A DNA stretch of 64,000 nt from an uncultured Victivallales bacterium (GCA_944390735.1 CALXRL010000014.1:1441-65440); one strand, 5' to 3'. Counted from the stretch's first letter, positions 1-21,228 are shown. The notes: generated by a model not told the origin, from the letters alone. Made by a program: numbers and translations.

Positions 1-933
1 CCAGATCACCGGGAGCCCGTTCGGTTCGAGATGGACCCTGTCAAAGAGTTCCTGAGCGAGGGAGTCGTCGGGAATTCCGAAGAGGAGGGCGAATCCGAGT
101 CCGCTTCCCTCCTGATAGCAGGCAGCCTCGCCCTTCCGGGGGCCGGTTCCGTGAATGAAATAAGCGGGGATTCCATCGGGGGAGTTCCGGAAGAAACGGG
201 TTCGGATGGTTTCGGCGAGAGAATCGGCTTTTTCCCGGTATTGAGAGGCGAGAGAGGCGTCGCGTCCGAGGGCGTCGAGAATGGAAGCGGCGTCACGATA
301 GGCTTTGACATAAAGGGAGTTGGTGCTGAGGGTCATGATCTGGAGAGCGTCGGGATATTCGGCGACGCATGATTTCCCTTCCGAGATTTCGGCATAGGGA
401 AGGGGGAGGGCGCCGATGCTGTCAAGAAAGAACCCCGGGCCGCGGAAGAGTCCAAATTCCGGGAGGAAGTAGTGATCCTCCTGCCAGGCGAGGGTTTTGA
501 TGGAGACTCCGGCGGCGAGAGAGAGAAATTCCCGGTTCCGTGTAATGAGCCAGTGGTGATAAGCGGCGATGATCCAGAGATGTTTATCCCAGAACTGGAG
601 GTCGTCGAACGAACCGCCGCTGATGCTTCCGTTGACCATGCCGTCTGCGAGGAGGGCGCAGAGGGTGTTTTCCGTGATGTCGGGAGCGAGGAAACTTCCG
701 GCAGCGAAGGAGTTGTATGAACCGTCGCGGGTCCAGACATCGCTGTATTCTCCGCCTGCGACGAAGAGGGCTTTCCCATTTCGCTTCACGCAGTTGATGT
801 TGAACATGACATGAAGAGCTTCCTGGTAGGCGTTTCGGAGGAGGTCTGTGATCTCCCGGTTGCTGCCGTCAAGGGACGGCAGGTGGATTGTCTCCTGTTT
901 CAAATAGAAGGGGCGAAGATGCAAGGTTCTCAT
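1..933 (-). CDS. Six-hairpin (alpha/alpha)6 glycoside hydrolase, GDE_C/GH63/trehalase-like; C-terminus lies outside the window
   Basis: Absent from the ORF track because there is no stop in the window. Manual translation of the minus strand from ATG 933-931 gives an uninterrupted 311 codons to position 1: MRTLHLRPFYLKQETIHLPSLDG...GGEYSDVWTRDGSYNSFAAG...DDLQFWDKHLWIIAAYHHWLITRN...PVIW. The WTRDG-type motif and helical-repeat character fit toroid glycosidases. Confidence 0.7.
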   Translation of the reverse strand, partial: MRTLHLRPFYLKQETIHLPSLDGSNREITDLLRNAYQEALHVMFNINCVKRNGKALFVAGGEYSDVWTRDGSYNSFAAGSFLAPDITENTLCALLADGMVNGSISGGSFDDLQFWDKHLWIIAAYHHWLITRNREFLSLAAGVSIKTLAWQEDHYFLPEFGLFRGPGFFLDSIGALPLPYAEISEGKSCVAEYPDALQIMTLSTNSLYVKAYRDAASILDALGRDASLASQYREKADSLAETIRTRFFRNSPDGIPAYFIHGTGPRKGEAACYQEGSGLGFALLFGIPDDSLAQELFDRVHLEPNGLPVIW

Positions 934-948
934 TTTTCTCTCCATTGA

Positions 949-1557
949 TTACCGGATCTCTTCAATCAGAAGATTCTTCAGGAATATTTTCCCGGTGGCC
1001 TTTCCTTCGATTCCGAGCATCAGAAGATATGCGGCTTTTGCATCGACTGGAACCGCATAAGTGAACGACACCTTTTTCCAGTCGAACGTCCCTTTTCCGA
1101 CAAAAGCGGACGGCCATTGTACCTTCCCGGATTCCAGCGGCTGCATCAAACCGAACTTGATCGGATTGGAAAGAGTTCCGACAACATTCTCCGCTTTGAT
1201 TTCAGCGGAAAAACGGTATGTTTTCCCTCGCTTGAGATCGCGTCGCCAGCTTTTGAAGCATCCGTCTTTCAATTGATCTTTTTTTTCTTTTTCCAGGACC
1301 TTGTCGAAGAAAAGACGGGTAATTGTTTTCGGGGCTGATTTTGTCGGCAGTCCGCTTTTTCGTCCTTCCACACAATCCGCCTTTTCTTGAAGAACTTTGA
1401 CTTTTTCCTCAAGAAGCGTATTTTCTTTTTTCAGCAGAATATTCTTTCTTTCCTGTTCAGCGACCTTTTGTTTCAAGTGTAGATTTTCCTCCAGCACTCC
1501 TGCGGAAGCTGTCAGCATCATCAGAAGAATGGCGGCAAAGAGATGGGGTGTTTTCAT
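949..1557 (-). CDS. Secreted coiled-coil protein with C-terminal beta-sandwich (CBM-like) domain, function unknown
   Basis: Internal start of track ORF 949..1797; ATG at 1557-1555 gives MKTPHLFAAILLMMLTASAG (signal peptide). A heptad-like EENLHLKQKVAEQERKNILLKKENTLLEEKVKVLQEK follows, then a beta-rich C-terminus. The upstream 80 codons overlap the neighbouring gene. Confidence 0.6.
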   Translation of the reverse strand: MKTPHLFAAILLMMLTASAGVLEENLHLKQKVAEQERKNILLKKENTLLEEKVKVLQEKADCVEGRKSGLPTKSAPKTITRLFFDKVLEKEKKDQLKDGCFKSWRRDLKRGKTYRFSAEIKAENVVGTLSNPIKFGLMQPLESGKVQWPSAFVGKGTFDWKKVSFTYAVPVDAKAAYLLMLGIEGKATGKIFLKNLLIEEIR

Positions 1558-1568
1558 AAGAACTCCTT

Positions 1569-2423
1569 TCAATTGAAGTGGTAGTGGGGAATTTCCGCAA
1601 AGCCCGGTTTGAGAGCGAATCCGCGTCTTGAGGGAAGATTGATTACCCTCTTCTTTTCTCCGCAGGAAAATGTATAGCTGCCCGGATACGGCAAATGGAA
1701 CCATGCTTTTCCGTTGGGATCGGCTTTCACAGAATAAGACCGCCCGACCGGGGAATCCGAACGGACAATTGCAAACGGTTCCGTATGGATGATGCACTCG
1801 GCATCGCTTCCGGAACGCAGAGGCAGCTGTTTGCGAAGAAGTTTCCGATAGGTGTCATTTATTTGATTTCGGACATGGCTGGGACGCGATGAATCAAAAT
1901 AATTGATGGAATGCATTCCAAACTGTGTCAGATGCGCGTAATGAGCAATCGGTTTGTACCCTCTGCCGGAAAGAGCAGGCCATGGAATCCGGAGCCAGGG
2001 CCAGTTTCCGAACGGAACCCCGGGAGGAGTCCGGGAGGGATCCTGCCGGGCTTTTTCATTCTGTTCCGCCGTAACACCCCATGGATTTCCCGTTCCGGTG
2101 GAGTCGGTCCGGGTAAAGCCGTCAAGAGAAAGCCCCATGTAAATGACGGCAGGAATCTCCTCCTGTTTGTACAAAGGCAGAATTTCCTCCAGGGTTCTGA
2201 CTCTTTTTGCAATTGCGGAGGGAGTGGGAGCATTGCCTCCATGCCATGCGCAGTAAAGCGTTTCACCGTAAATAACCGGACGATATTCAAACGCGTTCGG
2301 CCAGTTTACCACCCACTGATCCCGGTTGTATTCCGGATAGTGATAATTTGCAACTTGAGGAAGAGGTTTTTCCACATATCGCTGAAAACGATTCCATGAG
2401 GCTCTCGCACCATTCCTTGTCAC
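1569..2423 (-). CDS. Probable C-terminal part of the upstream GH2-like hydrolase (carries the predicted nucleophile region), separated by a 1-nt frame change
   Basis: Track ORF with a GTG start 2 nt after the stop of 2426..4891. It contains RPVIYGETLYCAWHGG. That Glu lies 91 residues after the NE acid/base of the upstream ORF if the frames are joined at the A5 run 2449-2453. No signal peptide or RBS of its own. Confidence 0.6.
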   Translation of the reverse strand: MTRNGARASWNRFQRYVEKPLPQVANYHYPEYNRDQWVVNWPNAFEYRPVIYGETLYCAWHGGNAPTPSAIAKRVRTLEEILPLYKQEEIPAVIYMGLSLDGFTRTDSTGTGNPWGVTAEQNEKARQDPSRTPPGVPFGNWPWLRIPWPALSGRGYKPIAHYAHLTQFGMHSINYFDSSRPSHVRNQINDTYRKLLRKQLPLRSGSDAECIIHTEPFAIVRSDSPVGRSYSVKADPNGKAWFHLPYPGSYTFSCGEKKRVINLPSRRGFALKPGFAEIPHYHFN

Positions 2424-2425
2424 AA

Positions 2426-4891
2426 TCAGATCCGGATCCAGGGAGCGGAAAAATGCTCGTATTTTACTGCAATTCGCTCATTCCGTTCATTGAGGGACGC
2501 CCGTTCGGCGGAGTCGCTCGCCTGCGTCACGATCTCATTGTCGGTGGACCAGATTACGACGGACGGATGGTTGCGGAACAGCCGGAAAAATCGTTTGTAA
2601 TTCTCCAGATTCCAACGATGTTCCTTTGTGGATTCCCATTGCTCCACAGGAGTCCGGTCCTTTTTATCTCCATTTTTGTAGATGCAAGGATACATTTGAA
2701 CATAACTGAGCATTCCTGTCCGGTCATGCTGGATGATCGCATCCTCGCCGCTGTCGCCATCATGCGTTCGAATGATATTGATATTGTCCCGACGGAGAAG
2801 ATCAATTAGAACTTCATTCTTTTTGAGAATTCGGGAACTTGCGCCAACATCCCCCTGAAGGAATATGCGTTTTCCGTTCAGGTAAAAATCGGTTGCCGCA
2901 ATCCAGAATTCACGGAATCCGAATGTCTGAAAATGGCGATCCGTCAATTTCCCGTTGCAATAGATGTCGCTGACAAGTTCATACAGATCCGGATTCCCGT
3001 ATTTTCCACCGATGCCCCACAGTTTCGGGTCCGCCCATTTCGACCGGTTTTGAACCAGTTTCTTTTCTCCGGCTTTCAGGCGGATTTTCCGGACAGGAAG
3101 AGACAGACGGATCCGTCCGTTTTCCACGACATACTGACGAAGTTCAATCTCCCTGTTCATGGAAGAGTTGTTTTCTAGTTCCGTCTCCGTGCTTAATTCC
3201 GCTTTTCTCCAGGATGTTTTTACATAAAGATCGGCCACTCGGACAGGGTTGCTGTATTCCAGATAAAGTCCTCCGGAAATTCCATACGTCGTCCTCGCGG
3301 GGAAATACGGATTCCATTTTAGTTGCAGCGTCAGAATGTTTTTCCCCTTTTTCAGATTTTTCAAGGGAATCTCCACCCAGCCGATGTTCCCGGAGTAAGA
3401 TCCGCACTCTTTTCCATTGCAGAAGACTTTCAGATCGCCGAAAACTTCATCGCAGCGGAAAACAATCCATTCCTCCTGTCCGGATGCGGGGAATTCCGTC
3501 TGATAAGCAACAGCCTCCTCACTCCAGAGGAAATCCGGGAAGGAATCTTTTTCATAGCCGGGATTGACTTTTACAGTTTTGTCCTTTGCAAGATGAAACG
3601 GCCAGTACCAGCGTTTGAAATATGGTGATGGCGAACGAAAAGCCGGAAGAAGATGCAGAACGGATTTCCCGTCTTTTCCCGTCGCAGTCCAGATTCCGTT
3701 CAGACAGAGTGTGGTCCGCTGTGTGACGGTTTTCTCCAATGGAAGATCGGTTGAGGATGGCGCATGTGCCGCGGCAAGATCATGTTCCTCCTGATAACGT
3801 TTTTCCTGCCCGGTGTACGCTTTTTTCAGTCGCTCCCGCACTTTCCGGAGCGAAGAGGAGAGATTTTTACGCATCTGGAGCAGCTTTTCCGGTTCTTCCT
3901 GAAGAATTTGCAGTTTTTTCCCGAGACGGCGGTTTTCTTCCTGAAGTTTTTCTTTTGAATAAACAATCTCCTCCTTTGAAAATTCCGCAACAAGCTGATT
4001 CTTTTTCCTCACCTGAAGCAGAAAGGAACGATTCCCGGCAGTAAGATTGATTGGAACAGAAAATTTTCTCCCGGGGAACGTTTTTCCTTCTACAGAGCAG
4101 GAAAGCTCTGCGGCATCCGGGGCAAAAATTTCACAGTACAGGAGATTGGCTCCATCGAAAAGAGGATATTTTTCAAAAGAGATTTTTGCAGAAATTCCGT
4201 TGTCATAAAGCTCCGCGCCATATTTTCTTGCGGGATTGTCCAGCAGAATTTTCACATTTTTCAATGGCTTGTCCGAAGGATCGCTCAATGCCAGACAAAA
4301 ACCAAAACCACCTGTCCGGTCCACGATTTTGAGAAGCAGGCGGTTCAGACCGCGTTTTAATTCCGCCGGATAGATAAAGTTGTTCGGCACCACGCCCTGT
4401 GAACCGTAATGTCTTGCGATTTCTCTGCCGTTGAGAAAAATTTTATGGTCATCATCGGATCCGGTCCGGATTTTTATTTTCTGACTCGAGGGCGATAGAA
4501 GATAACAAAAGGCATAAACAGCGAAATGGTCATCAATGGGAAGATATTTCCGGTCCAGGGAGATGATGGGCGATGGAAACGTTTCCGCTTTCCATGTCGC
4601 GTCATATTCTGTATTTTTACGGAACCCCCACTCATTGGTCATATCCACCTTTGCCACCAGTTTGGACCAGTCTGCAAGAAAGACGCTTTTCATTTTCAAT
4701 CCGGGGTTCGGCGCGGCTTTGCCTTCTCCCCCGAGAAAATCCGTGTCCAGAGCCTGACCTGAACCGTTTTTCTGATAGCTCGGGTAGGGACCGCTGGTCA
4801 GCCAGTCAAGAATAAATCCGTTCTGATCCAGCTGAGCAGCCGGAGAGAGAATCGCTGTTATCAGGAAAACAAAAAATAAGAGATGACGCAT
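2426..4891 (-). CDS. Secreted glycoside hydrolase family 2-like protein (N-terminal jelly-rolls, internal coiled coil, truncated TIM barrel)
   Basis: 821 aa with signal peptide MRHLLFFVFLITAILSPAAQ. Two xFxNGxxxG sugar-binding-type jelly rolls (KIFLNGREIARHYG, KVFCNGKECGSYSG). TIM-barrel motifs IIRTHDGD and NHPSVVIWSTDNE (GH2 acid/base NE). The ORF stops 35 aa after NE, before any nucleophile. Confidence 0.75.
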   Translation of the reverse strand: MRHLLFFVFLITAILSPAAQLDQNGFILDWLTSGPYPSYQKNGSGQALDTDFLGGEGKAAPNPGLKMKSVFLADWSKLVAKVDMTNEWGFRKNTEYDATWKAETFPSPIISLDRKYLPIDDHFAVYAFCYLLSPSSQKIKIRTGSDDDHKIFLNGREIARHYGSQGVVPNNFIYPAELKRGLNRLLLKIVDRTGGFGFCLALSDPSDKPLKNVKILLDNPARKYGAELYDNGISAKISFEKYPLFDGANLLYCEIFAPDAAELSCSVEGKTFPGRKFSVPINLTAGNRSFLLQVRKKNQLVAEFSKEEIVYSKEKLQEENRRLGKKLQILQEEPEKLLQMRKNLSSSLRKVRERLKKAYTGQEKRYQEEHDLAAAHAPSSTDLPLEKTVTQRTTLCLNGIWTATGKDGKSVLHLLPAFRSPSPYFKRWYWPFHLAKDKTVKVNPGYEKDSFPDFLWSEEAVAYQTEFPASGQEEWIVFRCDEVFGDLKVFCNGKECGSYSGNIGWVEIPLKNLKKGKNILTLQLKWNPYFPARTTYGISGGLYLEYSNPVRVADLYVKTSWRKAELSTETELENNSSMNREIELRQYVVENGRIRLSLPVRKIRLKAGEKKLVQNRSKWADPKLWGIGGKYGNPDLYELVSDIYCNGKLTDRHFQTFGFREFWIAATDFYLNGKRIFLQGDVGASSRILKKNEVLIDLLRRDNINIIRTHDGDSGEDAIIQHDRTGMLSYVQMYPCIYKNGDKKDRTPVEQWESTKEHRWNLENYKRFFRLFRNHPSVVIWSTDNEIVTQASDSAERASLNERNERIAVKYEHFSAPWIRI

Positions 4892-4915: not shown

Positions 4916-5635
4916 TTAATTTCCATATTTGGGAGCTGCTTTGCTTTTGGGTTCAAACGATCCCGGATCGGAAAAAGAGGTGTCCGGGAGACGAAGAAAT
5001 TTCAGATGGCCGTCCGCAAATGTAACATTCGCATTGAAGGGATTGTGCCGGGCCGCAAATTTTGCGGATGAAGAGGCCGTTTCCGCGGAAGCATCCCATA
5101 AGGTCGGCAGAATCCAGTATCCGAATGCGCAGTCTGCAAACAGAACTTTGCTGGAGGGCGAAAAAATATTCCGGTAGGCGGCCGAACCGAATTTCATTCC
5201 GGAATCACTGGAGGAATCCCCCTGATCCCCTTTGACCAGACCATAGCGGCCGCGATAGCCGTCCGTATACAATTTTCCCGCCGGACAATGAAAAACGCCG
5301 AAGGAGCTCCATCCATTGTCATAGCCTCCGGTCGACGAGTTATATTTGTACTGGACGGGACGTGGAACGTATCTTGTTTCTATCAGCACAATATTCCATC
5401 CTCCATCATTAAAGTTGCCGGTCGCAGTCAGTCGATTGCGGACCATTCCTTGCTGATCGTCCAGATAACTTTGTGCGGCAAATGCGATCTGTTTCAGATT
5501 CCCTCCGCACTTGATCGAGATTGCTTTTTCCCGCGCCGAATTCAACGCGGGAAGGAGGATTCCAGCAAGAATCGCGATGATCGCAATGACAACCAGAAGT
5601 TCTATCATCGAGAAAAACGTCTGTTTACTTTTCAT
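4916..5635 (-). CDS. Prepilin-type N-terminal cleavage/methylation domain protein, DUF1559-like pseudopilin paralog
   Basis: [38 protein letters not shown] (class III signal, invariant Glu+5) and C-terminal ...NVTFADGHLKF (DGH motif). AGAGGA lies 11 nt upstream of the ATG at 5635. The track ORF starts 9 nt earlier. Confidence 0.85.
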   Translation of the reverse strand: MKSKQTFFSMIELLVVIAIIAILAGILLPALNSAREKAISIKCGGNLKQIAFAAQSYLDDQQGMVRNRLTATGNFNDGGWNIVLIETRYVPRPVQYKYNSSTGGYDNGWSSFGVFHCPAGKLYTDGYRGRYGLVKGDQGDSSSDSGMKFGSAAYRNIFSPSSKVLFADCAFGYWILPTLWDASAETASSSAKFAARHNPFNANVTFADGHLKFLRLPDTSFSDPGSFEPKSKAAPKYGN

Positions 5636-6995
5636 AAACCACATCCTCTTTGATTTGTTTTATCACGATGGAACGGCGGAACTCCGGCAGTTCGCACCAG
5701 CCGTCCCGGATGGATCCCGGAATTTTCCGATCCTCCCACGGAAGATAGCAGACACACTTCCCGTTCCCTTCCAGCGGGATTCTCTCTCCCCGAAGAACTT
5801 CCGCAGCATTCCCTTCGACCAGTTCGCTTTTCCAGTCGCTGCGCTTGTCCCGGCACCACATCAGCGTCTGATGTCGTCCCCGGAGCCCCAGGATCCGAAG
5901 GCTGTGCGTCTCCGTATGATACGGAACAAACGCCTCCTCCACGGGATCCACTCCGCTCACCGCTTCGGCAAAACGAGCAAAATGGAACAGAAGATGGTGT
6001 CTCTGAATATAAAGATGATCCCAGTGCCAGGGCTGTCCGCAGCCTGCACTGCCGGCAAAAAACGGAGCAAACAGCATGTCGTGAAGAAGCGTTCCCTCCT
6101 TGTCGAGCGCGTAAAGATCGGAATACCGGGCATGATTGGCTTCCACCGCCCCGCATTCCGCAAGAATGAGCGGACAATGGGCATTGCGGTCGTGAAGCTC
6201 CCGGATCGAATCGGCACAGAGAACATCCATCGCTCCCCGGCAGACATCCAGTTCCGCTCCCGGATCCAGATAGCGGTGCACCTGAAGAAATCCATTCCCG
6301 GAAAGACGAGCCAGAGGATCGTAGCACAGATACGCGGTCGCCCCGGAAAAACTCCCCAGATTCTGCACAATCATCTGATGAGGAAATATTCCGGAGAGTT
6401 TCTCAATCATATACTCACTCCACTGCTCCGTTTCTTTCCCGCCTCCGATGCAGTTGATCTCATTCCATAGCTCCCATGCGATCACCGCCTTCGATTCTCC
6501 GAATCCTGCATCCGCAAGTCGCTGCGCCTTCGCCAGATACAGCCTCCTGCACTCCGCGGAAGCCAGATACTCCCGCATGTTGGAAACCATTCCCTGATAG
6601 AGCGGTTTGTGAAAATCAACCACTCCGGGAAACCCTTCCGGATCATTGCCATCCCCGATGCGACGGAAATGTTCCAGCGTGAATTTGATCCGGATTCCAA
6701 GTTTCTCCGCCAGATCCACGACAAAGCGGATGTGCGACAGATTCTTTTCGCTGAACTCTCCCGCTCGTTCCGGCATGATGTCGAAAAACGGAACTCCCAG
6801 CCAGATCCGGATGAAGTTGCCGCCATTCTTTGCAAATTCCGTCATCCAGGAGCGGTAGATCCCGAGATTCTCCTCTTCCGTTCTGCGCTCGGAATCCCGG
6901 ATAAAACAGAGATTGAGGCCGATCGGCAGATAGGTGGACCCGTCCTCATTCTCAAAATACCGGGGTTCCCGCCGGCTCTGTTGAACAAATTTCAT
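5625..6995 (-). CDS. Glycoside hydrolase, GH5-like (beta/alpha)8 barrel
   Basis: 456 aa with NGGNFIRIWLG and AVIAWELWNEINC (GH5-type NE acid/base strand). First gene after a TTGCTT-17-TATAAT promoter. No obvious signal peptide. Confidence 0.6.
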   Translation of the reverse strand: MKFVQQSRREPRYFENEDGSTYLPIGLNLCFIRDSERRTEEENLGIYRSWMTEFAKNGGNFIRIWLGVPFFDIMPERAGEFSEKNLSHIRFVVDLAEKLGIRIKFTLEHFRRIGDGNDPEGFPGVVDFHKPLYQGMVSNMREYLASAECRRLYLAKAQRLADAGFGESKAVIAWELWNEINCIGGGKETEQWSEYMIEKLSGIFPHQMIVQNLGSFSGATAYLCYDPLARLSGNGFLQVHRYLDPGAELDVCRGAMDVLCADSIRELHDRNAHCPLILAECGAVEANHARYSDLYALDKEGTLLHDMLFAPFFAGSAGCGQPWHWDHLYIQRHHLLFHFARFAEAVSGVDPVEEAFVPYHTETHSLRILGLRGRHQTLMWCRDKRSDWKSELVEGNAAEVLRGERIPLEGNGKCVCYLPWEDRKIPGSIRDGWCELPEFRRSIVIKQIKEDVVYEK

Positions 6996-7045
6996 AGTTC
7001 TTCATTTTCCTTTCTCTTTTGTCTGTTGTTCGGCTTCCTGCTTTC

Positions 7046-7074
7046 ATTATACTCGTTTTTCCCGCGGGAAGCAA
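7046..7074 (-). promoter_or_regulatory. Sigma70-type promoter for the GH5-pseudopilin-GH2 operon
   Basis: Minus strand reads TTGCTT-cccgcgggaaaaacgag(17)-TATAAT, about 50 nt upstream of ATG 6995. Confidence 0.55.
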
Positions 7075-7094
7075 CAGGGGAAAATGGGGTTTCT

Positions 7095-7110
7095 ATGCAA
7101 AATTTTGCAT
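7095..7110. promoter_or_regulatory. Perfect 16-bp palindrome ATGCAAAATTTTGCAT, candidate LacI-family operator
   Basis: Read directly. It sits between the divergent GH5-operon and LacI promoters, and TGCAAAATTTTGCA resembles LacI/GalR-type pseudo-palindromes. Confidence 0.5.
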
Positions 7111-7118
7111 CAAAAAAG

Positions 7119-7147
7119 TTGAAAACCGTGCATTTCCGCTGTATTTT
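7119..7147 (+). promoter_or_regulatory. Candidate sigma70 promoter of the LacI regulator
   Basis: TTGAAA-accgtgcatttccgctg(17)-TATTTT, 22 nt upstream of ATG 7169. Confidence 0.45.
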
Positions 7148-7168
7148 CCCCTCCGACAACAGGAAGGA

Positions 7169-8191
7169 ATGAAAACGATGAAGCGAATCAATGGCCGGGA
7201 TGTTGCTCAAGCAGCATCCTGTTCGCAGGCAACGGTTTCACGGGTCATTCGATCCGATCCGCGCATCAGCCTGGAAACCAGAAAACGGGTGCTGGACGCC
7301 GCCCGCCGGCTCGGATACGACATGCGCAGCGCCTCCGGCTCCTGGGGCGTGGGGGTGATCGTCTGTCTCGATCCGAATGACATCAACGGCTATTACGCCA
7401 AGATCCTCGCTTCGGTCTGCCGGGAGATCTTCCGGCGCGGACTGCATCCCGAACTGATCTGGCAGCAGTCGCTTCAGGAAGGATGCACCCGCTCATTCCG
7501 GGGGATTCTCGACCTCTACCAGACCCCGGACCGCGAGCTGGGGGCTCTGTTTCAGGTTCCCGTGGTGCGAATCAATGGAAAAGCGGATCATCTGAATCAC
7601 ATCTGGTCCGTGAATTCGGACAGTGCGGCCGGAATTGCCGCCGCCGTCCGCCATCTGCTGCGCAACGGTCACCGCGACATCCGCTTTGTCTCGCTGGAAG
7701 GAATCTACAACGAGAAGAACAAGGTCACACGCCGCTGGGAGGGCTTTCTCCGAGCCATGCAGTCCGCCGGCATCCCTGATCCGGAAAAACGGGCCATCTT
7801 TTTTCACAATCAGATGCAGACGGATCAGAAAGAGCTGGAAAGCTCCATCCGCCGCGCCATCCGGGAAGGCTGCACGGCGCTGATCTGCGTCAATTCGGTC
7901 CATACGCTGAAGGTCAACGCCGCGCTGCACTCACTGCATCTGCGGGTGCCGGAGGATCTCTCCCTGATCGACTGGGAATATGACGGTGTCTCCGAATATC
8001 TGGATCCGCCCCGGACCACGGTCATCACGGATTATGCGAAACTCGCGTCCGAAGCCCTGGATCTTCTGACTGAAATCCTTACGGCGGATCATCTTCCTCC
8101 GAACCGGATCGTGCAGGCCAAACTCCTGATCCGCAAAAGCACCGCCCGCCGGACGGCGTCTGATGCGTCCACCTCCCGTACCCCCATGTGA
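7169..8191 (+). CDS. LacI-family transcriptional regulator
   Basis: MKTMKRINGRDVAQAASCSQATVSRVIRSDPRISLETRKRVLDAARRLGY (HTH_LacI) followed by a periplasmic-binding-fold C-terminus. This is an internal ATG of track ORF 7019..8191. Confidence 0.9.
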   Translation: MKTMKRINGRDVAQAASCSQATVSRVIRSDPRISLETRKRVLDAARRLGYDMRSASGSWGVGVIVCLDPNDINGYYAKILASVCREIFRRGLHPELIWQQSLQEGCTRSFRGILDLYQTPDRELGALFQVPVVRINGKADHLNHIWSVNSDSAAGIAAAVRHLLRNGHRDIRFVSLEGIYNEKNKVTRRWEGFLRAMQSAGIPDPEKRAIFFHNQMQTDQKELESSIRRAIREGCTALICVNSVHTLKVNAALHSLHLRVPEDLSLIDWEYDGVSEYLDPPRTTVITDYAKLASEALDLLTEILTADHLPPNRIVQAKLLIRKSTARRTASDASTSRTPM

Positions 8192-8224
8192 AAGGAGCCG
8201 TTCCGCTCCATGTCCGCCCCGGAA

Positions 8225-11298: not shown

Positions 11299-11318
11299 AT
11301 GATCAAATCCTTTCCTTC

Positions 11319-12624: not shown

Positions 12625-13374
12625 TTATTTGATTCCGAGTCCGAACGGGTCGAGCGTCTGACCCTTGTAGCCTTCGGTTGTGCTTTGCCACTGGACATTC
12701 AAGGCGATGCCGTTTTTGACAAGCGTTACATGACCGTCGACATAGGCGAAATTCCCATCCGCTCCGGGACGGGAGTGGCGTCCGATGAAGGCATTGTAGG
12801 TGGGGCGGGTCGGGAAGAAGGGGGTCGGCACGCCATCGGCGCCATCGCTTTCCAGCAGCATGACGGCGGAAGAAGGACGCTTCACTTTCGTATTTCGAAT
12901 CGGCGGATCATTCCAGCCCACGCCGCCGCAGAGACCGCCCGCCTTGTAGGGCATCGCATAGGAGAGCTTGTGTTTCTGAATTTCCCATGCCCCTGTGGTT
13001 GGATTTGTTGCCATATATCCTTTCAAAATGGAAAGATTCTGCGGACAGAACCATGGAGTGCTCCAGACAACCTCCAGATTTTTTTTCATGTTGGGAAGAT
13101 AGCCGCTGACCATCAGGAGCACGGTCCAGGGGCGGGAGTTATTGGCGGACGTCGGTCCGCTTGCTTCCCGGAAAGGGGGAAAATAGCCGTCGGAATCGTT
13201 CTGATAGCTGACCAGGGCAAGGGCAATCTGCTTTTCGTTGCCGGAACAGAATGCGGTATCCGCCTTCGACCGGGCGGAATTCAGCGCGGGAAGAAGAAGT
13301 CCGGCAAGAATTGCAATGATTGCAATCACGACGAGGAGTTCTATCAATGTAAAATCCCGTACCTCATGTTTCAT
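12625..13374 (-). CDS. Prepilin-type N-terminal cleavage/methylation domain protein, DUF1559-like pseudopilin paralog
   Basis: [38 protein letters not shown] and C-terminal [15 protein letters not shown] 13374 overlaps the LacI stop (ATGA). Confidence 0.85.
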
Positions 13375-14402
13375 GGTTTTCTTCCTTTCTTTTTCAGGTT
13401 GGCGACGGAGTCCCGTTCGACCAGGGTTACATTGGAAATCTGTCTGGAAAGCTCCCGGCTGTCCGCATTCAGAAGCCGGAGCATGGCATGGGCCGCAAGA
13501 GAGCCGATCTCGACGCCGTTCTGCCGGATCGTGGTTAATTTCGGGACCAGGGCGGAAGCAAAGTTCAAATCCGCGGTTCCGATCACGCTGAGCTCCTCGG
13601 GAATTCTCACTCCCAGAGAGGCGGCCGCATCGTAGAGAAGGCGTGCATCGTTGTCGTTGTAGCAGTAGCATGCGCAGGGGAGGGGACGGGTCTTCAGCCA
13701 TTGGCACAGCGCATCCATCCTCTTCTCCTCTCCGATCTCCCGGAAGGAGAAGATGGAACTTTCCTCCAGTGCAATCCCCTGTTCCGCCAGCGTGGCGCGG
13801 AAGGAGAGGAACCGGGGGAGAAGTTCGACTGGCCAGGGATTCCCGGAGAGAAAACAGAGATTGCGGTGTCCCCTGGACAGAAGACAGTCCGCGGCAAGTT
13901 TTCCGCAGGCCTCTTCATCGGAACTGATGTTCTCGGAGAAAAAACGCTTTCCGAAGGCGTCAATGGTGACAACCGGAAGATTGAAGCGTTCAATTTCCCT
14001 CAGTTCTGCTTCCGTGAAATTCTCATCGGAAATACAGGCGATGATCCCATCCACGCGGTGATCGACCAGCCGGCGCATGGAGATGAAATCGCCGTTCCCC
14101 CGCAGACTCACCATGATCGGCAGATAATCTTCGGGAAGAAGCACCTCCTGAATGCCCTGGGAAATGTCGGCAAAATACGAGGTGCGCAGGGAACAGAGCA
14201 GAACCCCGATGCTCCGCGTCTTTCCGTTGAACGCGCTCTGCGCCACGGCATTCGGCCGGAAGTCATAGGCCTCCGCCAGCTTCCGGATCCGGTCCGCCGT
14301 GCTCCGCCTCACTTTGGGATCATGCGAAAAGACACGCGACACCGTCGCGGTTGAAAAACCGGAGAGTCGGGCAAATTGTTTGATGTTCATCGTCTTTTCC
14401 AT
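13371..14402 (-). CDS. LacI-family transcriptional regulator, first gene of the operon
   Basis: [51 protein letters not shown]. Alternative starts are 14390 (MNIKQF) and 14429; the latter would overlap the operator-like palindrome. Confidence 0.85.
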
Positions 14403-14554: not shown

Positions 14555-15496
14555 TCAGTCGGTGTTCTGATTCGGAGAACGGGGAGGAGCGGGGGATTCG
14601 GGATGGGAGGAGGGGGCTGTCCGAAGGGCAAGCGTCTGCTGAAAATGACGGTACGCGGTCGGCGGCTGCCCGACAAGGCGTTTGAATTCCTCGGCGAAAT
14701 AAAACTGGCTGCAGTAGCCCAGGCGGTAGGCGATTTCCTTGACCGTCATTTCCGGCACCTGGAGAAAATAGATTGCCCGTTCCATTTTGCGGGCGATCCG
14801 ATACTGCATCGGCGTCATTCCGGTATGCTTTTTGACCATTCGGATCAGACTCATTTTGCTGATGCCGGTGTATTGTTCCAGATCGGCAATGGTGAGCTTG
14901 CGATCAAAATCCTGTTCCAGATATTCGAGGATCCGGGGAAGAAGCGAATGAAGGGACTGTTTTTCCAGCTTGTCCATGGCGAAGCGGCCCAGAAGCTCGT
15001 AACATTTTCCCATCAGATGGAGAAATTCATTCCGGTCCCCGGTATCGACCCGTTCGCCGACGGCCTTCAGATCCGCCAGAAACGCGGGAAAGTCCCGGAC
15101 TTCATACAGCGCCGTGCGGTTCAGACGCAGCGAGGAAAGAATGGAAGATAGATGACAGCCTTTGATCTCCAGAACGTATTTGTGCTGATAGCCCCAGGAA
15201 CGGAAGAGATACGGCGTGAATTCCGGAACCAGCAGAACCGAACCGGGAACAACCGTATAGGTCTTTCCGCCGATCTCATAGATGCTCTCGCCCGATTCCA
15301 GAGCGATCAGCATCAGAAAACTGACGCCGGGGGAATCAAACCACGCATTGGCCGTATCGCGGATCTGATCCTCGAAGCAGAAGGGATACAGCGGAAGATC
15401 CAGATTGAAATGGAGCGAGAGCATCCGTCTGCGGTGATAGAGACTCTCCGCGTAATTGGAGGAAAGCCGCGCATTGGTTCTTGGTTTTGCTGTCAT
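14555..15496 (-). CDS. AraC/XylS-family transcriptional regulator with Pro-rich C-terminal tail
   Basis: Cupin-like N-terminus (VLLVPEFTPYLFRS), then C-terminal HTH_18: LTIADLEQYTGISKMSLIRMVKKHTGMTPMQYRIARKMERAIYFLQ...VKEIAYRLGYCSQFYFAEEFKRLVGQPPTAY. Start MTAKPRT at 15496. Confidence 0.85.
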   Translation of the reverse strand: MTAKPRTNARLSSNYAESLYHRRRMLSLHFNLDLPLYPFCFEDQIRDTANAWFDSPGVSFLMLIALESGESIYEIGGKTYTVVPGSVLLVPEFTPYLFRSWGYQHKYVLEIKGCHLSSILSSLRLNRTALYEVRDFPAFLADLKAVGERVDTGDRNEFLHLMGKCYELLGRFAMDKLEKQSLHSLLPRILEYLEQDFDRKLTIADLEQYTGISKMSLIRMVKKHTGMTPMQYRIARKMERAIYFLQVPEMTVKEIAYRLGYCSQFYFAEEFKRLVGQPPTAYRHFQQTLALRTAPSSHPESPAPPRSPNQNTD

Positions 15497-15637: not shown

Positions 15638-15639
15638 CA

Positions 15640-15668: not shown

Positions 15669-15882
15669 GAAATCCGGAAAAAGAACGATTCCCCGTTCAG
15701 AATCGGACGGATGGTTCGGAACAGAGAGCGCCGCTCCGCTGCTCCGCTGTCTTTCCGATCCGCTCCTCGTCCGGAGGGGAGATCCCTGCGGAAAAAATCA
15801 TTCGACCGTTCTGAAAAAGAGCGGCGCAACGATGGATGGGGAAGAACAGAAAAAAAAGAAAGGTTTTGGAAGATGAAACATG

Positions 15883-16418
15883 GCTGGCTGCTTGTGTTGT
15901 TCTCCGTCTGCGGAATCCTCTCCGCCGGAGAGTTCCGCATGGATCTGATCTCGTTGAAATCCGGCGTGGATCTGGAGATGGGAAAGACCTCCGGGGCATT
16001 TCGAATCATTGATTCCCCCTGGTACGGGGAGAAACGCAAACAGAGCATTGAGATCCGGGGGGAAACCTCCGACCGCTGGCAGGCCTATTCGTTTACGTTT
16101 GTCCCCCGGAAAAGCGGGATCGTGACGCTGCGGATCAGCGCTCCGTACGTCAAAGCGGGTGCGAAACCGAAGGTCTGCGCCTACGACAATATCCGTGCCG
16201 AGGGCGCTGAACTCAAAAACGGCGGTTTTGAAGAGAAGGTCCCCGCCCACGGCTGGATCCCCGGCTGGGGCACGAAGGACGGTCTGATGACCGGTGATGC
16301 CGCCGAAGGAAACTGCTACATGCGCTGCGCCTACCGGAAAGCCGTCGTTCAGAATCTCACCTGCCGGGAAGGGGTCCCCGTGACCATCTCCTTCCAGGCG
16401 AAAAACGCCGTCTGGTGA
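15883..16418 (+). CDS. Small secreted beta-sandwich (CBM-like) protein, unknown function
   Basis: MKHGWLLVLFSVCGILSAGE signal peptide, 178 aa, beta-rich. Internal ATG of track ORF 15603..16418. Confidence 0.6.
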
Positions 16419-16442: not shown

Positions 16443-17255
16443 ATGAGAATGCGCGCCTTTCCTGTGAAAAACTTCACTCTTGTAGAGCTCCTTGTTGTCA
16501 TTTCGGTTATTGCGATTCTGACCTCCCTTCTTCTTCCCGCCCTGAACAGTGCGAGGGAGAAGGCCGCCGCAATCGTCTGTTCCGGCAATTTGAAACAGAC
16601 GGGCGTCGGATTGATGATGTATGCCGGAGACCATGAGGACTATCTGCCCAATCTTCTTCAGGGAGTGGACTGCATGTTCACCGACTCCATCGCCGTTTAT
16701 GTCAACAGTTCCTACGCGGTGAAGACCACATTCACGGGAACGGGCACGTGGGGATATTTCATCAATTATGCGCCTTCGCACTACATTTACACGGCCAAAT
16801 CCGTGTTTGTCTGTCCGACGGCCGCGGGGAATCTGCGGGAGCCCTTCACCGGAGAAGCGGGAACGTTTTTTGTTTCGAACTACTCGGTGACGCGCTGCGA
16901 TAACGTTCCCGGCACGGTCTGCCGTCCCTATGCCTGGTGGCAGTACAGCGGGCAGACCAATGAAAAACCGAATGGAAGACGGATCAACGACATCAAAGGA
17001 CGGGTTCTTGTCGGGGAACAGCGCTATTATCAGGCGGCCAGTTCCATGACGCGCAAGGTCAATGTCACCCGTCTCGGTTCCGTTTACTGCTGGAGCGGCG
17101 CCTATGCGGTCAACAGCGAATGGGCATCCGGCAATGTGCATGGCGGCGGACTCTCCGGAAACTGGCTGTACAGGGATGGTCATGTTTCCAGTCACAAATT
17201 CAATCCGCAGCTCATCCACCGATCCGGAACCTCCGCCTATTTCATGGGATTTTGA
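16443..17255 (+). CDS. Prepilin-type N-terminal cleavage/methylation domain protein, DUF1559-like pseudopilin paralog
   Basis: [41 protein letters not shown] and C-terminal [20 protein letters not shown] lies 9 nt upstream of ATG 16443; the track ORF starts at 16425. Confidence 0.85.
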
Positions 17256-17271: not shown

Positions 17272-20200
17272 ATGAAACGTCAGATAACGGTTCTGTTTTT
17301 TTCCGCTGTTCTTCTGCTCTCCGCCGGACCCACGCAGGAGACAACGGATTTTATTGCGACCATTCAGCTGGGACAGCATCTGCTGGAACGCAAACTCGTC
17401 GCTCCGCATTTTTCGCCGATTCAGCGTCATTTCCCGGATGCGGTGAAGAAAATTTTCGCGATGTCTCCGGAGGCCGCCCGGCGCGAACTGGAGGCGTTCG
17501 AGGATGTGATGCTTCAGCTTTCCGCCCGCTGCACCGGTCAGCCGTATTCCCCGAATGTGGGATGGAATACGAAAAAAAGAGCGGCGGATTATGAAAAGAA
17601 TCTTCAGGAAACCCATGACGACTGGAAATACAACAGTCGGAGTCTTGCCCGGTTCGGATTGAAGGCGGATGCGGAATTCGAATGGAAGCGCCTTCAGGAA
17701 CTCCGCGGGGAAGCGCCCCGTCTGAAGACTCTGCCGGTGGACCCGCGTTTTGACCGCGCGTTCTCATTTTACAAGCAGATCGCGGAGGAACGTTTCCGGC
17801 TCGGCGGTCAGATCATTCTGTTCGAAAATGAACTGGATGCGCTTCTCCGCACGGCGGAATTCCGCCAGTCGCTCGGCGGTGCGGAGAAAAAGCTTTCCGC
17901 TGCCCCGATCCGCGCCCTGCTGAAACAGTGGAGAAGCTTCTACAATCAGAAAAACTATCTGCGCTGCGCCGATCTGGAAGAGAAAACGGCGGAGAAGATC
18001 GCCGAGCTGAAGAAGCTGGTGTTCGCTTCCGATGGAAAGACGCCGGATGTGCGTCCGGGCACCAGTTTTCTGAGCACGGGAATTTTCGGCTTCGGCGGAA
18101 ACTGGCAGGTTCTGCTGAATACCAATGCGCGGTACGGAAGTCTCTATCTTTCCCGCGAAAACGAGTTCCGGATGTATGAGAATTCCAAATTCGACTGGGA
18201 GGTCTCCTTCGATGCGGAAAACGCCACCTGTTCCCGCTATGAACTTGACGGCGGATCGTGGACGTATGCAAAACGCAAGAACATTTACAGAAATTCCGTG
18301 ACCGGAAAAGAGGAGATTATCGACGTCTACTGGAGCGTCCTTGCTCCGGGCGTTCTCTTCGATGCGCACGGGAAAGCCGTTTCCGTCGTGGAAAGTTCGC
18401 TTGGCGTTCCGGTCGCCCCCGATGCGGTCGCGGGCGTCTTCGACGGAAAGGTGCGCCTGATTCCTCAAGGAAATCCCATTCCCTCCAGGCGCATGAGCGA
18501 AGGATGGCTTCTGCTGCTCTGGAACGGGAATCCGGCGCCGAAACTGCCGGTTCTGCTTTTCTTTGAACAGGCGCCCGATCAGCTGGAATGGGGCGGAGGA
18601 GGGTTCCGGATCGCGCGATCTCCGGAAGTCGGAAAATATGCGGCGGCTACACTTTACGGCGCCGTTGCGCAGAAGCCCGATTTCGGAGGAAACTGGAAAA
18701 CTCTTCCCGCGGATGTTCTGAAACAGTGTCGTGCCGTGGCCCGGCATCTGGCATTCTATCCGCTGGATGCGGATGAGTTTTTTGCGTTCGGGAAGAATGG
18801 GTCGGTCCGGATCTGGAACAAGATCCGGAAAGCGGTCCGTCTGGACGGAAACTGGACAGCAAAAGCGCCCGCGTATGTTCCGTTTCCGCCGGCTTACACG
18901 CTGAGTGCGGATGTCCGTCCGGATCAGCCCCTTTCCGAGCCGCTGATGGCCACCCGTTTCGGATTCTACCGGACCGTTCCCGGAGAGGTGATCAGCTATT
19001 CGCTTTCCGCGCCCGATCTTCTGGAGCGTTTTGTCCTCAAACCGGTCTCCGGGGAGGAGCGGTATCTCAAACAGCTCAACGACACGATTCTGGCACACAG
19101 GGGAGGCAATGCGTGGGACAATTTTGTGCGGGATCGTCGTTCCGGTCAGGTTCTGGAACTGGCGGCCGGATTCTGCATGCTCTCCGGGGAGGCTCGGGAT
19201 GTGCTGAATCAGCAGCGACTTCCCGACCAGCTGGAGCTTTCGATCACGGGGGAGATGAGTATCAGCGGAGCTCGGGAACTGGACGGGCGGTCCCGTCTTC
19301 CCGACTATCTGATCGAGCCGAACACCGGGCGTTCCGCCTTTCTCGGCGGCTGGCGCGGACGCAATCAGGGCGGAGCGGGAAGCGGACGCGGCGATATGAC
19401 GCTGTTCAATCAGCAGCCGCTGTTCCATGCCTTCGGACAGGCCGTTCTGTTCGGGCGGTGGGATCTGGTGGAACGCTACTGGACCCGTCTGAAGGATCTG
19501 TACAGCGCGGTCGATTTCAACCAGCCGTGGCAGACTCCCGGGATGAACACGCTGACCAGCGGTCTGATTCTCTACGGCGACATGTATGGCGACGGATTCC
19601 GCTGTTACAATCTCATGTACCGTCTTGCCCGGGGCATGGGCGATGAGGAACTGGCCGCGCGCGCCCGCTATCTCGCCGCAAAACAGACCGCAACCACGAT
19701 CAACTTCCTTTCGCCAAACGTGATTGCGTATAATGCGCATGTCAAGAACATTCCCGCGGCGTCCGCTCCGGATTCCGCCATCGGCCAGCTCGGGATCTCC
19801 CAGTACGGATTCCGCACCGCTCCCTGGAAACCCTACGCGAAAGATGCGTGGAACGCTCCGTTCCAGACCGTCGGATGCACCAACGACTATCCGTTCTACG
19901 GCATTCTGCTGCGCTACTGTTATCCCGATTCGAAACTCTGGCTCGATACCTTTGCAAAGGCGATTCCGGAATGGCACGATCCGGTCTATCTCTACGAACA
20001 GCGCGGCGAACGGGTGAACAACGCGTGGAATTATCTGAAATACATGGCGTGGTCCAGCCGGGACCGTCGCGCGGTCCGGGCCCTCTATGAAACCGCCTTT
20101 CCCGCGGATTATTCCAGAACGAAGCCGCTCTTTTCCTTTCGGGGAAAGATGTGGGAGGCTCTCTACCGACGTCTTCACATGAACGAATGGTTTCAGCGGG

Positions 20201-21228
20201 GCAATGTGCTGCCGCATATCATCGGACAGAACGATCCGGTGTGGATCGGCGATTTCGGACGGGCGCGTCTGGTTTCCGGCGTCTACGACCGGGAAAAACG
20301 GCATGTGCGGATCGAACTGACCTCCTCCCGTCCGGATACGCTGACGGTCGTTTCGATGGTCAAACCGCTCCGCATTCTCCGGAACGGAACGCCGCTTGCA
20401 ATCCGGCGCGGCGACTGGGAGTTCGCCTATGAGATCCCGCTTCCCGAGGGAAACAACGCCGTCGAGCTTTTCCTTCCGGAATTCCGGGTGGAGGAGTATC
20501 CGTTTCCGAAGCGGGGAAAGCCGTCGCCGGTGCAGAATCTGGCAAAGGCGCCAAAGCCGCAGAAACTGCAGCGGTCATCCGCCCTTCCGTCCGAATTCAA
20601 AGTCGGGCCGGTGACGATGCTGGATCTTGCGCCGTTCTGCAACCTGGGATTTTCCGATTCTCCTGAAAACATGGTGCGCAAGGAGTTCTGGAAGTTTCCG
20701 AAGAAGGATGTCATTCGCGGAGTCCCGTTCCGCTTCACGGATCCCGCCGTCAACGGGGGAAAAAGCATGATTGCCCTGCGGGGACGTTACCGGAAGACGC
20801 TTCCTTTGCTCGTCCGCTCCATTCCGGTGAACAAGGTGCCGAAACGGATCTTCTTTCTCCACGGCATGTGTTACAATGCGGACAATGGAAAGGTGGTGAC
20901 CTATCGTCTGAACTTCGCCGACGGACAGACCCGGGAGATCGCGATCTATGCCGGGATCGGAACCGGCGAATGGAAGGTCGCACCCGGAGGAACGCATCTG
21001 ACGGAAGTGCCGTTTGCTCTGACGGGCAAGGTTTATCCTCCCGTCCGGGAAGGACAGTGGGGCGAGGGGGCGGGAGGATATCTCTTCGTCTGGAACAATG
21101 ATGTCCGTTCGCTCGGTGTGACCAATCAGGATGTCGATCAGCGAAGTCCGGCCTGTGTGAAGTCGATTGATCTGATTTCCGCGGACCGTTCGGTTCCGCT
21201 TCTGTTCGCGATCACGGTGGAGGAGTAG
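17272..21228 (+). CDS. Very large secreted protein (1318 aa), no family recognised
   Basis: MKRQITVLFFSAVLLLSAGP signal at ATG 17272. Balanced amino-acid composition throughout, unlike the R/G/P-rich antisense ORF 17764..20304. Last gene of the AraC-divergent operon. Confidence 0.8.
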   Translation: MKRQITVLFFSAVLLLSAGPTQETTDFIATIQLGQHLLERKLVAPHFSPIQRHFPDAVKKIFAMSPEAARRELEAFEDVMLQLSARCTGQPYSPNVGWNTKKRAADYEKNLQETHDDWKYNSRSLARFGLKADAEFEWKRLQELRGEAPRLKTLPVDPRFDRAFSFYKQIAEERFRLGGQIILFENELDALLRTAEFRQSLGGAEKKLSAAPIRALLKQWRSFYNQKNYLRCADLEEKTAEKIAELKKLVFASDGKTPDVRPGTSFLSTGIFGFGGNWQVLLNTNARYGSLYLSRENEFRMYENSKFDWEVSFDAENATCSRYELDGGSWTYAKRKNIYRNSVTGKEEIIDVYWSVLAPGVLFDAHGKAVSVVESSLGVPVAPDAVAGVFDGKVRLIPQGNPIPSRRMSEGWLLLLWNGNPAPKLPVLLFFEQAPDQLEWGGGGFRIARSPEVGKYAAATLYGAVAQKPDFGGNWKTLPADVLKQCRAVARHLAFYPLDADEFFAFGKNGSVRIWNKIRKAVRLDGNWTAKAPAYVPFPPAYTLSADVRPDQPLSEPLMATRFGFYRTVPGEVISYSLSAPDLLERFVLKPVSGEERYLKQLNDTILAHRGGNAWDNFVRDRRSGQVLELAAGFCMLSGEARDVLNQQRLPDQLELSITGEMSISGARELDGRSRLPDYLIEPNTGRSAFLGGWRGRNQGGAGSGRGDMTLFNQQPLFHAFGQAVLFGRWDLVERYWTRLKDLYSAVDFNQPWQTPGMNTLTSGLILYGDMYGDGFRCYNLMYRLARGMGDEELAARARYLAAKQTATTINFLSPNVIAYNAHVKNIPAASAPDSAIGQLGISQYGFRTAPWKPYAKDAWNAPFQTVGCTNDYPFYGILLRYCYPDSKLWLDTFAKAIPEWHDPVYLYEQRGERVNNAWNYLKYMAWSSRDRRAVRALYETAFPADYSRTKPLFSFRGKMWEALYRRLHMNEWFQRGNVLPHIIGQNDPVWIGDFGRARLVSGVYDREKRHVRIELTSSRPDTLTVVSMVKPLRILRNGTPLAIRRGDWEFAYEIPLPEGNNAVELFLPEFRVEEYPFPKRGKPSPVQNLAKAPKPQKLQRSSALPSEFKVGPVTMLDLAPFCNLGFSDSPENMVRKEFWKFPKKDVIRGVPFRFTDPAVNGGKSMIALRGRYRKTLPLLVRSIPVNKVPKRIFFLHGMCYNADNGKVVTYRLNFADGQTREIAIYAGIGTGEWKVAPGGTHLTEVPFALTGKVYPPVREGQWGEGAGGYLFVWNNDVRSLGVTNQDVDQRSPACVKSIDLISADRSVPLLFAITVEE

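Follow-up and report, generated by a model that had tools for sequence, protein, structure and literature searches.

Why would a pilin-like gene be present in each of several neighbouring operons devoted to glycan utilisation? The question is raised by a 64,000-nucleotide stretch of DNA from an uncultured Victivallales bacterium (GCA_944390735.1 CALXRL010000014.1:1441-65440), called here the window. A sequence-only reading of the window had reported three pilin-like genes, each in a separate cluster together with a regulator and genes of carbohydrate-active enzymes (CAZymes), and had proposed for them a role as locus markers. Gene calls and a six-frame scan for class-III-like signal motifs retrieve exactly three such open reading frames (ORFs) in the 64 kb, where that reading had placed them:

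4916..5635, minus strand: PIL1, pilin-like protein, 239 aa (239/242 aa by gene call); motif scan and gene call
12625..13374, minus strand: PIL2, pilin-like protein, 249 aa, whose start overlaps the stop of the regulator gene LacI-2; motif scan and gene call
16443..17255, plus strand: PIL3, pilin-like protein, 270 aa; motif scan and gene call

Considering these three genes together with their relatives elsewhere, we find that, in Lentisphaerota nutrient operons, the pilin-like gene usually opens the series of structural genes, behind a LacI/AraC/GntR regulator or a cobalamin riboswitch. We tentatively propose that each paralog may serve its own operon as a substrate-specific component for capture or uptake, with ligand binding, filament assembly and crossing of the outer membrane as the presumed steps.

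Position of the pilin-like gene in Lentisphaerota operons

We collected 80 genomic loci, selected for containing a member of the family to which PIL1-PIL3 belong. Genes were called with a small codon-usage gene finder, validated on the public gene calls of the window, and LacI/AraC regulators were detected with iterated hidden Markov models. In Lentisphaerota, such a regulator lies directly upstream of the pilin-like gene in 19 of 38 cases (15 co-directional and 4 divergent) and directly downstream in 1 of 39, an asymmetry with a Fisher p value of 1e-6 (28 loci); it is found within three genes in 29 of 40. The directly upstream position is occupied by a LacI/AraC regulator in 1 of 37 cases in Verrucomicrobiota and in 0 of 12 in Planctomycetota. 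The regulator coupling is therefore lineage-specific, being restricted to Lentisphaerota (Victivallales) among the members sampled. Within the window, all three pilin-like genes fall among the 16 cluster genes of about 51 genes in total (hypergeometric p = 0.027).

The usual layout is a regulator, then the pilin-like gene (at times two in tandem), then one or several large genes. In its most compact form it is a three-gene unit lying amid housekeeping genes, of which we found one composed of a LacI gene, a pilin-like gene and a gene for a 1809-aa Laminin_G_3/GH2 protein, and another composed of a GntR-type regulator, a pilin-like gene and a heparinase-like lyase. The LacI proteins adjacent to pilin-like genes are 13-24% identical to LacI-2 of the window. 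The association of exactly one regulator with one pilin-like gene per operon, described earlier, holds in the window and is not a rule, since tandem pilin-like genes, GntR-type regulators or riboswitches are found elsewhere.

The gene following the pilin-like gene is carbohydrate-active in at least 13 of the 20 cases scanned, and its families include sulfatase, GH78, GH123, GH16, GH20, GHL6/10, DUF4838 (three), heparinase II/III-like (two), pectate-lyase-like and Laminin_G_3. Approximately 70-75% of the downstream genes in Lentisphaerota encode products exported through Sec, and about 25% encode cytoplasmic ones (GH78, a sulfatase, PGI); in the operons with a cytoplasmic partner no secreted cargo is apparent from the next gene, the one examined. 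Sugar transporters are not in the top 25 families listed in a qualitative tally of 83 operon mates, in which a FecCD-type ATP-binding cassette (ABC) importer appears twice, and no TonB-dependent receptor or SusD family was detected by Pfam in the window loci or in the annotated neighbourhoods of relatives.

One operon of the window could be followed in another genome. Locus L087 has the same order of LacI, pilin-like gene, esterase, 589-aa protein and GH29, with the same 4-nt overlap between LacI and the pilin-like gene; this overlap, the ATGA shared by the LacI-2 stop and the PIL2 start, had been noticed beforehand in the window and is confirmed here. The identities between both operons are 47% for PIL2, 67% for GH29, 57% for LacI and 47% for the 589-aa protein. 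The esterase of L087 (2919-4595) is a different and longer protein than that of the window (11319-12602), with 558 aa, 25% identity and weak AXE1/PhoPQ_related matches. This suggests that the esterase was swapped in a modular way and that the pilin-like gene, the 589-aa protein and GH29 were retained.

A second type of control was found in four loci, in which an adenosylcobalamin (AdoCbl) riboswitch precedes the pilin-like gene:

L039, 9399-9544: AdoCbl riboswitch match directly 5' of the pilin gene; RF01482, 43.8 bits, E = 5e-7
L053, 9800-9935: AdoCbl riboswitch match directly 5' of the pilin gene; RF01482, 37.8 bits, E = 1e-5
L091, 5883-5958: AdoCbl-II riboswitch; RF01689, 45.7 bits, above the gathering score of 36.5
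L090 (Victivallis vadensis), 5843-5923: AdoCbl-II riboswitch; RF01689, 39.3 bits, above the gathering score of 36.5

In L090 and L091 the riboswitch lies 43-78 nt upstream of the pilin-like gene, which is followed by an overlapping operon of Radical_SAM, Peripla_BP_2, FecCD, ABC_tran and CbiK. L039 and L053 have one or more pilin-like genes, then Peripla_BP_2, FecCD and ABC_tran, one of the two loci also having CbiK and a tetrapyrrole methylase. The pilin subfamily from these loci is well conserved, with 40-50% identity among homologs. In L039, the true start of each tandem pilin-like gene is immediately preceded by a copy of a hairpin element some 80 nt long (9930-10007 and 10853-10930); these repeats gave spurious matches to miRNA families, and both ORFs carry the same translated extension. 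The hairpin may serve as an expression platform, or it may be a repeat element.

Two other loci associate the same pilin subfamily with a CobN-chelatase. In L093 (6001-12789) the pilin-like gene heads a cluster of MotA_ExbB, DUF2149 and CobN-chelatase, and in L092 a pilin-like gene (6001-6816) is convergent to a CobN-chelatase/MotA_ExbB/DUF2149 cluster (6818-12250). By their layout, these clusters resemble the hmuSTUV heme-utilisation genes of Bacteroidota, minus the hemophore HmuY and the TonB-dependent HmuR (PMC12583661). The neighbourhood of L092 also holds NikR, ThiGHSF and two more genes of the family. The role of locus marker is thus upheld for Lentisphaerota, where the gene is recurrent and position-specific in regulated operons and is kept at 47% identity in synteny, and it has to be widened, as cobalamin-uptake and CobN/ExbB loci show that it is not specific to glycans.

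Family membership, N-terminal signal and predicted fold

PIL1-PIL3 are 31-36% identical to each other overall, with first segments of about 50 residues that are nearly identical and an invariant DGH near the C-terminus. They pass the cutoff of the prepilin N-terminal model TIGR02532 (19.8, 22.4 and 16.6 bits for PIL1, PIL2 and PIL3, cutoff 16.3). The DUF1559 model PF07596 matches below its gathering score of 23.3 bits (22.1 for PIL1, 22.7 and 20.8 for the others) and only over positions 2-57 of 268. For the H-X9-DG model TIGR04294 (cutoff 19), PIL2 scores 12.4 bits and the two others give no match, although their relatives P0036 (20.2 bits) and P0096 (23.5 bits) pass. The distance from H to D is 10, 12 and 11 residues in PIL1, PIL2 and PIL3 and exactly 9 in the consensus of the B12 subfamily. 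The GspG equivalog TIGR01710 is matched at 24.9-34.9 bits against a cutoff of 88.85, over the N-terminal 50-70 residues only (model of 134 positions), and Pfam annotation of the window revealed no gsp gene near the PIL genes. More generally, the GspG, ComGC and PilA models match the N-terminal helix only and far under their cutoffs, and the PDB sequences matched by this N-terminus are PilA, GspG and geopilin.

Homology places the three proteins more clearly than the models do. A sequence search with PIL2 returned more than 7700 full-length homologs among the matches listed, many of them annotated as prepilin-type, H-X9-DG or DUF1559, and full-length homologs carrying the DUF1559/H-X9-DG domains are found at E = 1e-17 to 1e-22 with 85-96% coverage. 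A profile search (E <= 1e-30) gives a family size of 62,207 clusters at 50% identity. Family-wide features are the N-terminal helix, two conserved cysteines and a C-terminal H...DGH; the head domains are extremely divergent and contain 13-14% of W+Y+F. By homology, and not by model cutoffs, PIL1-PIL3 are divergent members of the very large "DUF1559 / H-X9-DG" prepilin-like family of the Planctomycetes-Verrucomicrobia-Chlamydiae (PVC) bacteria. The label "DUF1559-type" given beforehand holds at the level of family homology, through the full-length homologs that carry PF07596, and not as formal membership by the model, the window proteins themselves remaining under the threshold with N-terminal matches. 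This family is the largest paralog family of planctomycetes, of unknown function (PMC10632474, PMC4807772), and one planctomycete has 68 paralogs (PMC10632474). Victivallales (Lentisphaerota) metagenome-assembled genomes (MAGs) are the nearest genomes, and animal or human gut samples are the source of several of the related loci.

All three proteins display the elements of a class III signal, namely a short basic leader, then a hydrophobic helix of about 20 residues with F at +1 and E at +5. The near-identical class III N-termini, the invariant DGH and the divergent heads reported earlier are all recovered; the canonical glycine at -1 is not, the residue being F, D or N in the window proteins (FxxxE starts at 5614, 13353 and 16473), as in the leaders MKSKQTF of PIL1 and MKHEVRD of another window protein. 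The TIGR02532 alignments begin at model position 4, past the G. At -1, G or A is kept in the Verrucomicrobiota and Planctomycetota loci. Characterised prepilin peptidases need a glycine at this position. F+1 and E+5 are invariant despite variable leader lengths, and we infer from these sequences that a prepilin peptidase with relaxed specificity may still cleave the proteins; a residue other than glycine at -1 implies either such a peptidase or no cleavage.

The window paralogs have 30-32 of 42 N-terminal residues identical, with a nucleotide identity of 65-67% and 17-19 codons for identical residues that differ synonymously. This pattern indicates purifying selection on the N-terminal helix alongside a diverging head. 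Gene conversion was considered as a source of the identical N-termini and ruled out, the synonymous sites being saturated.

The AlphaFold 2 model of PIL2 consists of a 50-residue N-terminal helix and an alpha/beta head, with a predicted local distance difference test score (pLDDT) of 74. The V. vadensis relative P0280 (L090, 6001-6819; model m9f3303c4b0b3) is predicted with the same layout and a beta-rich head (pLDDT 89.7, predicted template modelling score 0.84). Foldseek searches of both models against the PDB gave nothing significant past the helix, and no match below E = 1 for the P0280 head, which may represent a pilin head fold without solved relative.

Gene content of the window

The window was compared with six public metagenome or MAG contigs, including ENA ERZ16268180 scaffold_255 and NCBI GCA_964328585.1, at a divergence of 0.2-0.3%, and the gene map drawn from the sequence alone is reproduced by independent gene calls on these near-identical contigs. 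Cluster (i), on the minus strand, contains the 456-aa gene, PIL1 and the GH2-like gene, with a LacI gene (337 aa) in divergent orientation. Cluster (ii), also on the minus strand and tightly packed, comprises LacI (343 aa), PIL2 (249 aa), AXE1 (427 aa), the 589-aa gene and GH29 (435 aa). In cluster (iii), AraC (313 aa) is divergent from the 181-aa gene, PIL3 (270 aa) and the 1318-aa gene. The features other than the pilin-like genes are the following:

1..948, minus strand: partial ORF, 316 aa, running past the window edge; no Pfam/NCBIfam match
949..1557, minus strand: small ORF with a weak CBM_4_9 match, 24 bits, below the cutoff of 25.9; Pfam and gene finder
1569..4891, minus strand: GH2-like exported enzyme; PF00703, PF02836, signal peptide
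5625..6995, minus strand: 456-aa enzyme-like protein, first gene of cluster (i), without signal peptide; gene call
7095..7110, no strand: perfect 16-bp palindrome ATGCAAAATTTTGCAT, between the divergent 456-aa operon and LacI-1; candidate LacI operator
7119-7147: promoter-like site near the divergent region of cluster (i) and LacI-1; consensus match
7178..8191, plus strand: LacI-family regulator 1, 337 aa, divergent from cluster (i); PF00356, PF13377
8225..9532, minus strand: GH29 alpha-L-fucosidase, 435 aa, without signal peptide; PF01120, E = 4e-60
9529..11298, minus strand: exported 589-aa protein, function unassigned; signal peptide, no Pfam/PDB match
11319..12602, minus strand: AXE1/CE7-like acetyl esterase, 427 aa, Sec signal peptide; PF05448, E = 5e-37
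13371..14402, minus strand: LacI-family regulator 2, 343 aa, first gene of operon (ii); PF00356, PF00532, PF13377
14428..14449, no strand: 9+9 palindrome AAAATGTAA-n4-TTACATTTT, 26-47 nt 5' of the LacI-2 start; candidate operator
14555..15496, minus strand: AraC-family regulator, 313 aa, divergent from cluster (iii); PF12833, PF00165
15640..15668, plus strand: best sigma-70-like promoter match of the region, TTGACG-17-TATAAT with TG, 5' of cluster (iii); consensus match only
15873..16418, plus strand: exported 181-aa protein; gene call, signal peptide, no Pfam match
17272..21228, plus strand: exported 1318-aa protein; signal peptide, no Pfam/PDB match

The candidate operators and promoter would fit three units under separate regulation. 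Sec signal peptides are present in the GH2-like, AXE1, 589-aa, 181-aa and 1318-aa proteins and absent from the 456-aa protein and GH29, and Pfam revealed no transporter in the three clusters.

Several enzyme labels attached earlier to these genes could not be verified, as the proteins concerned have no Pfam match: "GH5" for the 456-aa protein, "six-hairpin GH" for the ORF at 1-948 and "CBM-like" for the 181-aa protein. The 456-aa protein, which has no NCBIfam match either, resembles residues 133-560 of PDB 9gmj/9gpc (E = 2.5e-33), a "DUF5060 domain-containing protein"; this name is uninformative for the identity of the enzyme, and a literature search yielded nothing more. The GH2-like gene is frameshifted in the window, where an 821-aa ORF ending at a TGA (2426-2428) is continued in another frame by a 284-aa ORF (1569-2423), and is a single gene of 1107 aa in other assemblies of the same species. 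The likely cause is a difference of 1 nt, with the T5/A4 runs around 2445-2465 (T5 run 2447-2451) as its probable place; either a genuine pseudogene or a fault of assembly could account for the interruption.

Large proteins without Pfam match are those of 589 aa (9529-11298), 1318 aa (17272-21228), 1009 aa (28133-31162) and at least 982 aa (61055-64000), and the first two have no PDB sequence match either. The 589-aa protein, with its ortholog of 47% identity beside GH29, may be an undescribed glycan-active enzyme. The other 43 kb of the window are of housekeeping type (aquaporin, sulfite/nitrite reductase, GT4, phosphotransacetylase, topoisomerase I, OTCase and a MoxR/BatA/VWA operon), and the motif scan found no further pilin-like gene in them. 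The last operon (54032-60071) encodes a MoxR-type AAA ATPase, DUF58, BatA and VWA proteins, similar to the Bacteroides aerotolerance operon, and is followed by large unknown proteins.

Possible roles, precedents and significance

A conserved helix combined with a diverging head fits a shared apparatus with a specific head. In the capture role that we tentatively propose, the near-invariant helix, with its F+1 and E+5, would dock the paralogs to one type-IV-filament-like apparatus or membrane-anchoring system encoded elsewhere in the genome, and the divergent aromatic-rich head would bind its cognate ligand either on the cell surface or within the periplasm. For the three window loci this ligand would be a glycan, for the riboswitch operons a corrinoid, and the head would either hold it for the co-expressed enzymes or carry it across the outer membrane. 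Classical riboswitch-controlled B12 operons have btuB where the pilin-like gene stands here. No secreted enzyme is encoded in the riboswitch BtuFCD/CbiK operons, which already include a periplasmic binding protein (Peripla_BP_2) of their own, and with the pilin-like gene in the btuB slot these facts point to a role in acquiring the substrate, at the outer membrane or across it; they argue both against a secretion adaptor and against a simple binding protein of an ABC transporter. Of the two mechanisms envisaged originally, substrate binding is therefore favoured over the adaptation of a secretion apparatus to each enzyme set, which is disfavoured by the absence of secreted cargo from the B12 operons and from the operons whose examined next gene is cytoplasmic.

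Several results weigh against the capture role. No secretin, ATPase, platform protein or prepilin peptidase gene is annotated in the 64-kb window, in agreement with what had been noted about type II secretion system (T2SS) and type IV pilus machinery. Glycine at -1 is found in 4 of 81 relatives in one set (A2) and 2 of 77 in another (A6), and its absence weakens the case for prepilin cleavage and filament assembly. The regulator coupling is not seen in the sampled Verrucomicrobiota and Planctomycetota members, the selection of loci by family membership biases the background rates, and a pilin-like gene adjoins only 4 of 12 bystander regulators. Heads and neighbouring enzymes show only a weak sign of co-evolution (p = 0.017, odds ratio 12.5) in an underpowered BLAST comparison, in which 40 bits or more are reached by only 17 of 1060 inter-locus pairs and divergent DUF4838 pairs are missed, and the second-closest relative of PIL2 belongs to a non-homologous operon. 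Finally, the riboswitch matches of L039 and L053 span the full model with the conserved core present, yet score below the gathering value of 50; at the gathering threshold Rfam reports nothing in L039, L053 or the window, and both matches emerged only when hits were selected by E-value.

Three other explanations were weighed. The proteins could be non-filament bitopic membrane proteins of the inner membrane, the pilin-like N-terminus being an uncleaved anchor and the periplasmic head an accessory for binding, chaperoning or delivering the substrate or the enzymes. The missing glycine in the window proteins and most Victivallales relatives, the lack of machinery in the window and the Pfam identifier of the family, SBP_bac_10, are consistent with it. 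However, a mere anchor needs neither F+1 and E+5 in fixed register after variable leaders nor a helix of about 30 residues apparently kept under purifying selection across thousands of paralogs, and a second periplasmic binder would be redundant in B12 operons that already have Peripla_BP_2; we regard this explanation as unlikely. Somewhat less probable still are cargo-specific pseudopilins of a shared T2SS, each variant recruiting or pushing its own enzymes across the outer membrane or tethering them on a surface pseudopilus. GspG is indeed the best NCBIfam match of the N-terminus, some sources label relatives "type II secretion system protein", the majority of downstream products (about 70-75%) have Sec signal peptides, and the minimal units combine one pilin-like gene with one large exported enzyme. 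Nevertheless, the GspG match is limited to the first 50-70 residues (25-35 bits against 88.85), the riboswitch operons have no enzyme to secrete and the next gene is cytoplasmic in some operons (GH78, a sulfatase without signal peptide, PGI). Characterised T2SSs use one set of pseudopilins for all substrates, and cargo-specific pseudopilins are, to our knowledge, unprecedented.

The absence of any functional link, with abundant paralogs standing beside CAZyme operons by chance or hitch-hiking, is highly improbable. It would draw on the huge size of the family, in clusters as well as in the 68 paralogs of a single planctomycete (PMC10632474), and on the modest statistic of the window (p = 0.027), but it is opposed by the upstream versus downstream counts (19/38 versus 1/39), the translational coupling to the regulator in two genomes, the synteny kept at 47% identity and the same layout in four riboswitch-headed operons.

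The capture role can be compared with known systems. Within the DUF1559/H-X9-DG family, the window proteins differ by their scores below the cutoffs, the spacing of 10-12 residues and the lack of glycine at -1, and the operon position seen in Lentisphaerota is not found in the sampled Planctomycetota and Verrucomicrobiota. They share with T2SS pseudopilins (GspG/GspH) and type IV pilins the basic leader, F+1, E+5, the alpha1-N helix and the predicted succession of a long helix and an alpha/beta head, whereas the similarity stops after about 60 residues and the head is about twice as large, with no Foldseek match; unlike in gsp/pil clusters, the genes are scattered, one per catabolic operon. 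Like SusC/D, BtuB/BtuG and HmuR/HmuY, they are operon-specific divergent paralogs that mark glycan, B12 and probably tetrapyrrole loci in the slot of the receptor or surface binder; as there is no relation in sequence or fold, this analogy would be one of position and function only.

The closest mechanistic precedents, by analogy and not by common sequence or fold, may be the bindosome and the proposed "fishing-rod" pili. In the Sulfolobus bindosome, sugar-binding proteins with class III signals are encoded in uptake operons and depend on one shared assembly system, Bas (PMC3047682). These proteins have solute-binding folds of ABC systems and stand beside ABC permeases, whereas the window proteins have a head of about 200 aa without Pfam match to a solute-binding fold; unlike in the bindosome, a transporter adjoins the pilin-like gene only in the B12 operons, which carry a separate Peripla_BP_2. 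In planctomycetes, fibres of the crateriform structures bind dextran, and a "fishing-rod" mechanism in which pilin-like fibres pull polysaccharide into the periplasm has been proposed (PMC5394234, PMC12078418); no genes were assigned to these fibres, and the sampled Planctomycetota family members show no regulator coupling. Our full-text literature search found no paper linking the family to CAZyme operons, regulators or riboswitches, and no functional paper, in agreement with the initial statement that it has no established role. The family and the pilin scaffold were already known; what appears to be undescribed is their use inside operons, matched to the substrate, and the control by riboswitches.

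The DUF1559/H-X9-DG proteins are among the largest protein families without assigned function and form the biggest paralog group of a model planctomycete, in which two members are essential. A broader generalisation, which we consider possible but doubtful, is that the family constitutes a modular system of nutrient capture and import based on type IV filaments in Lentisphaerota, and perhaps in PVC bacteria, that would replace TonB-dependent receptors and surface lipoproteins, with one head per operon (glycan, corrinoid, tetrapyrrole), a shared and possibly retractile filament and a peptidase freed from the need for glycine at -1. The loss of this glycine raises a separate question on the specificity of prepilin peptidases. 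The cultivable Victivallis vadensis has a member under a cobalamin riboswitch that heads a BtuFCD-like importer operon, which makes a corrinoid the obvious ligand candidate. For genome analysis, the pilin-like gene would help in practice to call loci similar to polysaccharide utilisation loci in Lentisphaerota genomes, of which it would be a marker, and, as the PVC bacteria, major polysaccharide degraders of gut and ocean, are devoid of SusC/D, it represents a concrete candidate for their uptake step.

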